From a virus, in the IMG/VR virus record IMGVR_UViG_3300031673_000156: DNA of 41,666 nt; one strand, given 5' to 3'. The notes under the pieces are model-generated. The model ran no database searches. It was given only the letters and a program-made list of their open reading frames with translations, and was not told where the DNA came from. Shown one piece after another: positions 24,956 to 25,536 of this stretch. The first letter of the stretch is position 1, and each line of letters begins with the position of its first letter. The position numbers and the translations under genes were made by a program.

Positions 24956-25276
24956 GTGAGCGAGCATAAAGATTTTATCGTTGCTAAGACCTTGGAAGCT
25001 TTCGAGCGGTTCGATCCGGTGGTGGAAGAAACGTTACCCCAAGAGCCAGGGTCGCCTTCGGTGGCCCCGGACGGTGTGCCTGTCTTCGACTTAGAAACGA
25101 TGAGAAATCTGGAGCTTCACAAAGATAAAGTGATCCACGCCCCTGATTTTGAAGCGTTTATGGATCTCTTACAAAACGTAGCTACGGAAGAGAAACTAAA
25201 CCCGGCTCAAGACTTTGACAAGTTAGCCTCGGTGTTGAACCGGTTTAGAATAGACGAAGGGCTGGACCCACTTTAG
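24956..25276 (+). CDS. Hypothetical acidic protein
   Basis: 106-aa ORF with a GTG start and GAGGG 7 nt upstream. Confidence 0.5.
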   Translation: MSEHKDFIVAKTLEAFERFDPVVEETLPQEPGSPSVAPDGVPVFDLETMRNLELHKDKVIHAPDFEAFMDLLQNVATEEKLNPAQDFDKLASVLNRFRIDEGLDPL

Positions 25277-25536
25277 TATCTAGCTCGTGGTTGTCTTTCT
25301 TGCGCTTCGTTGACTTTGATGGTTCTGCCGTCGAATTCCTTGCCGTCTAATCCGTGCATGGCGTCGTCAGCGTCCTGGTCGCTAGAGTAGGTTACAAAAC
25401 CAAACCCCCTAGACCGATCTGTCTCACGATCGAAAATCACCTTTGCTTCGGTGACTGTACCGTATTGCTCAAATTTAGCTAACAATGAATCATTGTCAGT
25501 GCCCCACGAGAGACCACCCACGAATAACTTTTTCAT
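25273..25536 (-). CDS. RRM-domain RNA-binding protein (RNP-1/RNP-2 type, Rbp/CIRP-like)
   Basis: The start is chosen at MKKLFVGGL, with SD AAGAGGA 9 nt upstream. RNP-2 is LFVGGL and RNP-1 is RGFGFVTY, within a single about 80-aa RRM fold. Confidence 0.85.
   Translation of the reverse strand: [87 protein letters not shown]

Follow-up and report, generated by a model that had tools for sequence, protein, structure and literature searches.

Only recently has it become clear that proteins with a canonical RNA-recognition motif (RRM) serve as global post-transcriptional regulators and in cold adaptation in bacteria without Hfq or CsrA (PMC11697453, PMC13370968). In Bacteroides, RbpB binds RNA globally, with a preference for single-stranded regions and in concert with small RNAs (PMC11697453), and the Bacteroides RRM-1 proteins are redundant, cold-induced and autoregulated non-canonical cold-shock proteins (PMC13370968). 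In phages, T4 RegA is, by analogy, the nearest functional precedent. Here we analysed an RRM gene in the IMG/VR virus record IMGVR_UViG_3300031673_000156 (41,666 nt; the whole stretch is referred to as the window, and related loci carry L numbers), to which an earlier annotation (the original prediction) had drawn attention. The stretch 25273-25536 is a real gene, its product is a real single-domain RRM and it is genuinely phage-borne. Extra genes with their own promoter between conserved phage genes are known as morons, a concept that comes from the lambdoid phages. The RRM gene is probably a moron-like unit of approximately 0.4 kb encoding a tail-less phage copy of the bacterial Rbp/glycine-rich RRM family, which would have been captured, retained and transcribed by the host, and whose product would act as a general binder, chaperone or modulator of single-stranded RNA (ssRNA). 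The elements of the gene are the following:

25273-25536, minus strand: coding sequence (CDS) of the RRM protein, 87 aa plus TAA stop (open reading frame (ORF), Pfam RRM_1 match, hnRNP A1 match, AlphaFold2 fold, ratio of non-synonymous to synonymous substitution rates (dN/dS)).
25545-25551, minus strand: Shine-Dalgarno-like AAGAGGA, purine-rich, 8 nt upstream of the RRM ATG (sequence).
25577-25604, minus strand: predicted sigma70-type promoter, -35 TTGACA (25604-25599), 16-nt spacer, -10 TAAGAT (25582-25577) (scan and conservation).
25608-25620, minus strand: A/T-rich block TAATGAAAATGTG, close upstream of the -35 and conserved in part between lineages (alignments).

On the minus strand, the ORF runs from an ATG at 25536 to a TAA stop (25275-25273). 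Its coordinates and protein sequence were exactly as first quoted. A mechanical ORF of 105 aa starting with a TTG at 25590 was ruled out as the gene; it spans the promoter, and the stretch upstream of the ATG showed no coding conservation. A purine-rich GGGA/GAGG block was present in L008, L091, L092 and L095 at the position equivalent to AAGAGGA in the window.

Pfam RRM_1 (PF00076) matched residues 4-74 of the protein over profile positions 1-70 of 70 (78.1 bits, E=4.8e-22; gathering cut-off 20.7 bits). Judged by its score, this match is far beyond chance, and RRM_1, RRM_7 and RBD_DEAH11 were the only families returned by the Pfam scan. RNP-2 reads LFVGGL (aa 4-9) and agrees with the hexamer (I/V/L)-(F/Y)-(I/V/L)-X-N-L at its aromatic and aliphatic positions; the consensus N is replaced by G, as it is in hnRNP A1 (LFIGGL) and in the Gly-rich RRM subgroup. 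RNP-1 reads RGFGFVTY (aa 43-50), which agrees with (K/R)-G-(F/Y)-(G/A)-(F/Y)-(V/I/L)-X-(F/Y) at 8 of 8 positions and is unchanged in 11 phage orthologues. The best solved-structure match was RRM1 of hnRNP A1 (E=6e-30), in which both RNP motifs aligned residue for residue; further matches were RBP1 (2mpu), a glycine-rich protein (GRP, 4c7q), CIRP (5tbx/1x5s) and the Helicobacter pylori RRM protein '12RNP2' (2ki2, E=5e-14). The AlphaFold2 model, built on a 23-sequence alignment, predicted the order b1-a1-b2-b3-a2-b4 (strands at residues 2-7, 28-35, 42-50 and 74-77, helices at 15-22 and 53-63; mean predicted local distance difference test score 82.6). RNP-2 falls in the strand 2-7 and RNP-1 in the strand 42-50 of this model, and disorder was limited to the final six residues. 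The single RRM with RNP-1 and RNP-2 put forward by the original prediction was thus borne out by the Pfam profile, by the alignment of the RNP aromatics with hnRNP A1 and by the predicted fold. The protein ends in ERQPRARY, a short and basic C-terminus; as had also been noticed, it contains no Gly-rich tail, unlike its closest cellular relatives. Neither the RRM protein nor its immediate neighbours matched a PADLOC-DB defence model.

By homology, the protein belongs to the known bacterial single-RRM Rbp family, here seen in a phage. It shares with the bacterial single-RRM proteins (cyanobacterial Rbp, Bacteroides RbpA/B/C and the NCBIfam model NF058537) the same RRM_1 domain of approximately 80 aa and the same RNP-1 and RNP-2, and it is 60-71% identical to members from metagenome-assembled genomes (MAGs). 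Bacterial single-RRM relatives are labelled 'cold-inducible RNA-binding protein' in Joint Genome Institute (JGI) annotations. Like the bacterial Rbp genes, the phage gene is small and stands alone, and its product has a basic C-terminal stretch with an aromatic end (RY in the phage, NRW or NRY in bacteria); unlike them, it is phage-encoded and lacks a Gly/Arg-rich tail, although some bacterial members lack one too. NF058537 ('RNA-binding regulator', an equivalog_domain model) was by far the best NCBIfam match (95.5 bits, E=1.8e-27, profile positions 2-79 of 79; curated cut-off 100 bits). Because the score lies under the cut-off, the protein is named on this profile a close relative of the NF058537 family and not a member or certified equivalog. 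The LF[VI]GGL motif is common to the phage protein and to eukaryotic hnRNP A1, CIRP and plant GRPs, but the phage protein is a single domain, with no second RRM and no Gly-rich/RGG region, and the expression signals of its gene are prokaryotic.

The nearest cellular proteins were those 60-71% identical single-RRM proteins, most of them with Gly/Arg-rich tails and NRW ends; in the closest homologues the tails (GGGG/RGG) are 20 to 60 residues long. At 85-91 aa, none of the phage orthologues has such a tail, and a terminal aromatic residue (RY, RF or SY) remains in most of them. Tail-less versions of 88 to 89 aa occur in bacterial genomes too (P0045, P0069, P0107; L018, L030). Close homologues came from MAGs of Deltaproteobacteria, Pseudomonadota, Oligoflexales, Myxococcota, Planctomycetota and Krumholzibacteria, as well as of Latescibacteria, Thermodesulfobacteriota, Acidobacteriota, Rhodothermales, Leptospirales and Anaerolineae. 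Judged by these homologues, the single-RRM family is widespread in environmental bacteria, and the earlier statement that RRM proteins are uncommon in bacteria outside a few lineages does not hold. The phage gene was evidently acquired from a bacterium, because its product is so similar to bacterial RRM proteins; the horizontal acquisition suggested at the outset agrees with this.

The donor was sought in neighbour-joining trees with bootstrap, based on an alignment of 83 residues. The core phage RRM clade was monophyletic with 48% support under sparse sampling and 33% under dense sampling. No stable sister group was found, the neighbours alternating among MAGs of Deltaproteobacteria, Myxococcota, Oligoflexales and 'Pseudomonadota'. 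The donor or host lineage is therefore not nameable from an 83-residue tree, and the hint at the host lineage that had been expected from the RRM phylogeny was not obtained. Of 200 bootstraps, 5 grouped the two deeper-branching lineages L176 and L178 with the core clade; by synteny, one acquisition that includes them is favoured. Several of the nearest RRM homologues, including some from Oligoflexales, lie in loci with a GC content of 48-51%, compared to 47% in the phage. Host hints of this kind are soft, and they conflict: the GC-similar loci are from Oligoflexales, while the named homologues of the Major Vault Protein (MVP)-like ORF described below are from high-GC Myxococcota.

The sigma70-like promoter reported by the original prediction was present at 25577-25604. 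TTGACA-16-TAAGAT was the sole exact match to TTGACA-N16/17-TAnnAT in the 41.7-kb window. The -35 TTGACA was invariant in five lineages (window, L008, L091, L092/L093 and L095), in which the -10 reads TAAGAT, TAAAAT, TAGAAT, TAGGAT and TAGTAT respectively, with T1, A2, A5 and T6 invariant. The 16-nt spacing was constant in the same five lineages although the letters of the spacer had diverged. That the host primary-sigma holoenzyme would transcribe the RRM gene is a well-supported inference, because hexamers and spacing were kept while the spacer diverged. The predicted transcription start lies near 25570, with a 5' untranslated region of approximately 34 nt. On this view, TTGACA-16-TAAGAT would let host RNA polymerase with its primary sigma factor transcribe the gene without recourse to the phage operons on either side, and expression would probably be early or constitutive; early expression is plausible from the promoter type. 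Canonical -35 and -10 boxes are a mild argument against hosts with non-canonical promoters, such as Bacteroidota. The A/T-rich block TAATGAAAATGTG is possibly an UP-like element or part of a divergent promoter. The Rfam scan of the window returned tRNAs only, with no known cis-regulatory RNA near the RRM gene.

The RRM gene was found at the same place and in the same orientation in at least seven diverged lineages (window/L001-L007, L008, L091, L092/L093, L095, L176/L177 and L178/L183). Among the five lineages named above, amino-acid identity was 67-80%, dN was 0.15-0.30, dS was 1.2 to more than 3 or not computable (saturated) and dN/dS was 0.04-0.20. The gene is under strong purifying selection. 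In the 11 phage orthologues, mean column conservation was 0.97 in beta1 (RNP-2) and 0.98 in beta3 (RNP-1), compared to 0.61-0.67 in the two helices, indicating that the constraint falls on the nucleic-acid-binding face. Its composition is fully ameliorated: GC is 47.3% and GC at third codon positions 50%, against phage gene means of 47.2 ± 3.0% and 51.9 ± 6.4%. On these comparisons the gene is an old resident, captured by an ancestor of the lineage and kept long since. Such long retention of a captured RRM with a host-type promoter suggests that RRM-based manipulation of RNA is useful to the phage.

The comparison with a more distant relative, L180, bears on how the gene entered the genome. 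The flanks are:

24956-25276, plus strand: ORF106, conserved phage gene, downstream flank; its stop overlaps the RRM stop (convergent, 3 to 4 nt shared; gene map and L180 orthologue).
25537-25692, no strand: divergent intergenic region of 156 bp between RRM and ORF116 (gene map).
25693-26043, plus strand: ORF116, conserved phage-specific gene of 116 aa, upstream flank, divergent to the RRM gene and convergent with the flap endonuclease (FEN) gene (homologue search).

The gene order in the window is a plus-strand block ending in ORF106, the RRM gene (minus), ORF116 (plus) and a minus-strand FEN block. In L180 the orthologues of ORF106 (50% identical) and ORF116 (58% identical) are co-directional and 49 bp apart with no RRM gene, and FEN and S8 protease genes come after them. 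The RRM CDS plus its 156-bp upstream region (approximately 0.4 kb) thus looks like a unit inserted on the opposite strand, and we take it for a moron-like insertion because L180 has both flanks without it. As in a moron, a single gene with its own predicted sigma70-type promoter lies on the opposite strand between conserved genes, and L180 represents the empty site. Unlike a moron, it has no detected terminator, its composition is typical of the phage and the insertion is an old one, by now fixed in many lineages.

ORF116 had 11 homologues only, all within this phage group, and no Pfam, PHROG or NCBIfam match. It occurs both with and without the RRM gene; a still more distant homologue, in L182, has no adjacent RRM gene. 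A functional coupling of RRM and ORF116 was considered and is not inferable, ORF116 being restricted to the phage group, without a family match and present without RRM in L180. Two features of the setting had been described differently. The RRM gene was said to lie next to a flap nuclease, but the oppositely oriented 116-aa gene intervenes and RRM forms a transcription unit of its own. It was also placed in a cassette bounded by inverted repeats; the region 22000-30000 contained only short imperfect pairs (at most 28 nt, 72-94% complementary) of a chance-like kind. The stop overlap with ORF106 (25273-25276, CTTTAG/TTA) is the same in L091, L092 and L095, and in L008 there is a 3-nt gap. The divergent intergenic region contains a perfect 16-nt palindrome, CTGAGTATATACTCAG (approximately 25655-25670), near the ORF116 start, which is not kept as a palindrome in L008.

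In the function we consider probable, the protein would bind ssRNA through the aromatic RNP-1/RNP-2 face of its beta-sheet. During infection it would serve as an RNA binder of a general kind, a chaperone or a modulator at the post-transcriptional level, much as the RRM-1 proteins of bacteria do for the cells that encode them, and would change how phage and/or host transcripts are folded or translated or how stable they are. Binding of ssRNA is the most likely activity because of the homology to bacterial RRM proteins and the pattern of constraint. We infer the ligand (RNA rather than single-stranded DNA (ssDNA)), the timing of expression and the consequence for infection. A contribution to host takeover, as the original prediction suggested, is plausible too.

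Several points weigh against this interpretation. By pattern alone the promoter is weak: at least one TTGACA-N16/17-TAnnAT match was present in 10 of 100 shuffles, and promoter-like sites were not enriched overall. L176 and L178 share a different upstream sequence, TTGCGG-17-TAGCAT, so that in these lineages either the promoter was swapped or a second acquisition took place at this site, between which the tree cannot decide. No terminator follows the RRM gene, and it is a moron only in part; the overlapping stop codons leave no room for one between RRM and ORF106, and a weak hairpin approximately 220 nt downstream was all that was detected. The overlap would also make the RRM transcript run antisense into ORF106 unless some undetected terminator acts. 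The protein scores narrowly under the NF058537 equivalog cut-off, and RRMs can bind ssDNA too: the deposition of 2ki2 describes an ssDNA-binding protein. The Gly-rich tail contributes to chaperone activity in plant relatives and in some of the bacterial ones, and the phage protein has no such tail. The word chaperone may thus be too strong, plain binding or competition being equally possible. The TTGCGG-17-TAGCAT element lies on the minus strand in both L176 (4836-5000) and L178 (4848-5000), and the RRM proteins of these two loci begin with MTKK or MSKNK.

The missing tail can also be read as a function in itself. The phage protein could be a decoy of the host Rbp that occupies its RNA targets or titrates its partners, disabling the post-transcriptional/cold-stress network during takeover. 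Such a role would fit the contrast between the tails of 20 to 60 residues in the closest cellular homologues and the 85-91 aa of all phage orthologues, the nearly invariant RNA-binding sheet, and an independent host-type promoter suited to early expression. We nevertheless consider it unlikely: the tail-less bacterial versions of 88 to 89 aa mean that shortness is not phage-specific, and a decoy requires a tailed paralogue in the host, which would have to be assumed. Just as doubtful is a role of the protein as a dedicated takeover or counter-defence factor, in which a tail-less mimic of the host Gly-rich RRM/cold-shock-type chaperones, made from the host-type promoter immediately after infection, would displace host proteins or sequester regulatory or defence RNA. 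If this were true, canonical RRMs would be a recurrent, unrecognised class of phage post-transcriptional effectors, given that more than 100 IMG/VR contigs carry independent RRM genes.

The protein might alternatively act on a particular set of phage mRNAs, repressing their translation in a sequence-specific manner or autoregulating, as T4 RegA does, instead of binding RNA in general. RegA is a small phage RNA-binding repressor described as carrying an RRM-fold domain (PMC7824862), and feedback on their own synthesis is known for the RRM-1 proteins of Bacteroides (PMC13370968). The two phage proteins are alike in being small and in their RRM-like fold, but they have no detectable sequence relationship: RegA lacks the RNP-1/RNP-2 signatures of canonical RRM_1, and for the window protein the RegA family was absent from the Pfam scan and there was no PHROG match. 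The first 47 nt of the RRM CDS are identical between the window and L008 despite saturated dS elsewhere, which speaks for such a role; this identity was not kept in L091 or L095, so that a constraint at the RNA level on the start of the CDS was rejected, and no repeated candidate operator was found. A RegA-like function is thus quite unlikely.

A part in replication or recombination, as an ssDNA-binding accessory of the module with helicase, clamp-like protein and FEN nearby, is improbable. The RRM gene is one gene from FEN (26071-26949) and less than 10 kb from the DnaB-like helicase gene, and some RRMs bind ssDNA, 2ki2 being annotated as an ssDNA-binding protein. However, the gene forms a transcription unit of its own on the opposite strand, its nearest homologues carry RNA-binding annotations, and it is dispensable in L180, which keeps FEN and the flanking genes. 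Finally, a neutral passenger or artefact (a recent host fragment, a chance ORF or a cellular contig) could be imagined from the absence of RRM in L180 and L182 and the lack of a PHROG family, but it is effectively excluded by the purifying selection (dN/dS 0.04-0.20 with saturated dS), the conserved promoter and Shine-Dalgarno-like sequence, the fully ameliorated composition and the phage hallmark genes on both sides.

The RRM of the window has few counterparts among catalogued phages. No PHROG family matched the RRM protein, and of the 50,697 catalogued phage records three carried an RRM match (Microcystis phage MaAM05 and two Acinetobacter phage MD-2021a; 33-39% identity). In BFVD there was no phage match, every significant structural match coming from giant viruses of eukaryotes. 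A scan of IMG/VR with the single RRM protein as query found no relative; a scan with an alignment-derived profile found RRM relatives on at least 104 contigs, none of them more than 58% identical and most of them stand-alone proteins of 80 to 130 aa. The original prediction that RRM proteins are not expected in phages therefore stands for catalogued phages but not for IMG/VR. As far as these searches go, a canonical RRM is rare in catalogued phages and not unprecedented in phages. The RRMs of MaAM05, MD-2021a, the IMG/VR contigs and the giant eukaryotic viruses are, like that of the window, all stand-alone RRM_1 ORFs, and many of those in IMG/VR are 80-100 aa long without a Gly tail; they are only 33-58% identical to the window RRM and lie in unrelated genomes and positions, e.g. 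in L165. Searches of the literature turned up no work on a canonical RRM encoded by a phage and no described function for the other virus-borne RRMs. Since RRM genes occur in unrelated phage genomes from metagenomes, phages may harbour a class of RNA-binding auxiliary proteins that has gone unstudied. For the moment the practical value is modest, the family of the protein being known and the target RNAs not being readable from sequence; the case could seed the study of RRM proteins as phage post-transcriptional effectors.

A recurrent RRM family of approximately 93 aa (MG[VI]RLFVGNLSF...) was noted in L165 (6001-6246; IMG/VR UViG 3300044824_000332) and in approximately 35 similar loci (L136-L175). 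In L165 the gene lies between the tail sheath/tube region and the tail/baseplate genes of a myovirus-type module that includes major head protein, tail sheath and baseplate wedge. A structural module is an unusual position for an RNA-binding protein.

By its gene content, the window is a divergent, uncultured tailed-phage genome. PHROG/Pfam phage genes lie on both sides of the RRM gene, in agreement with its original assignment to a phage. The features located are:

16836-18164: DnaB-like helicase (PHROG/Pfam).
23056-23129 and 23142-23214, plus strand: tRNA-Phe(GAA) and tRNA-Ile(GAT).
26071-26949, minus strand: 5'-3' exonuclease/FEN, phrog_107 (PHROG/Pfam).
28799-29524: virion structural protein, phrog_16710 (PHROG).
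38213-40783: collagen-like tail fibre (PHROG/Pfam).

The window also encodes a clamp-like processivity factor (PHROG/Pfam), a beta-helix protein and a 712-aa phrog_2426 protein with relatives of 27-28% identity in PBS1/AR9, ViI-like and Rhizobium phages. Megablast of 21.7 kb of the window against the 50,697 deposited phage records gave no nucleotide match, tblastn of the 745-aa and 558-aa ORFs against phage records gave none either, and several large ORFs were without a phage homologue. The same RRM protein was found on 16 metagenomic contigs, the longest listed being 87.5 kb. A bidirectional hairpin with a 13-bp stem (23015-23045) stands ahead of the first tRNA, and a third, weak and partial tRNA-like match was observed at 23375-23430 on the plus strand (30 bits, model positions 10-63).

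The MVP-like ORF (1-1125, plus strand) is cut by the window edge and matched the Pfam families MVP_shoulder (E=7.5e-28), Vault_3 (6e-9) and SPFH/Band_7 (1.6e-5). It had 89 homologues of approximately 35-43% identity, and the few named ones came from Kofleriaceae, Nannocystis and Myxococcales MAGs. One homologue lies in the phage-like 89-kb contig L181 (8001-9524), amid many small ORFs, an adenylosuccinate-synthase-like gene and a PARP-domain gene. A DnaJ-type co-chaperone (11937-12728, minus strand) has a J domain and DnaJ_C and no zinc-finger region, and scored well under the NCBIfam DnaJ equivalog cut-offs. An S8 subtilase (27393-28325, minus strand; Pfam E=4.7e-45) stands beside FEN in all related phage contigs and matched the generic PADLOC 'subtilase' model. 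An HNH endonuclease gene (30558-31732, minus strand) comes after a gene for an S-adenosylmethionine (SAM)-dependent methyltransferase in related contigs (Pfam labels), and in the window the two ORFs overlap.

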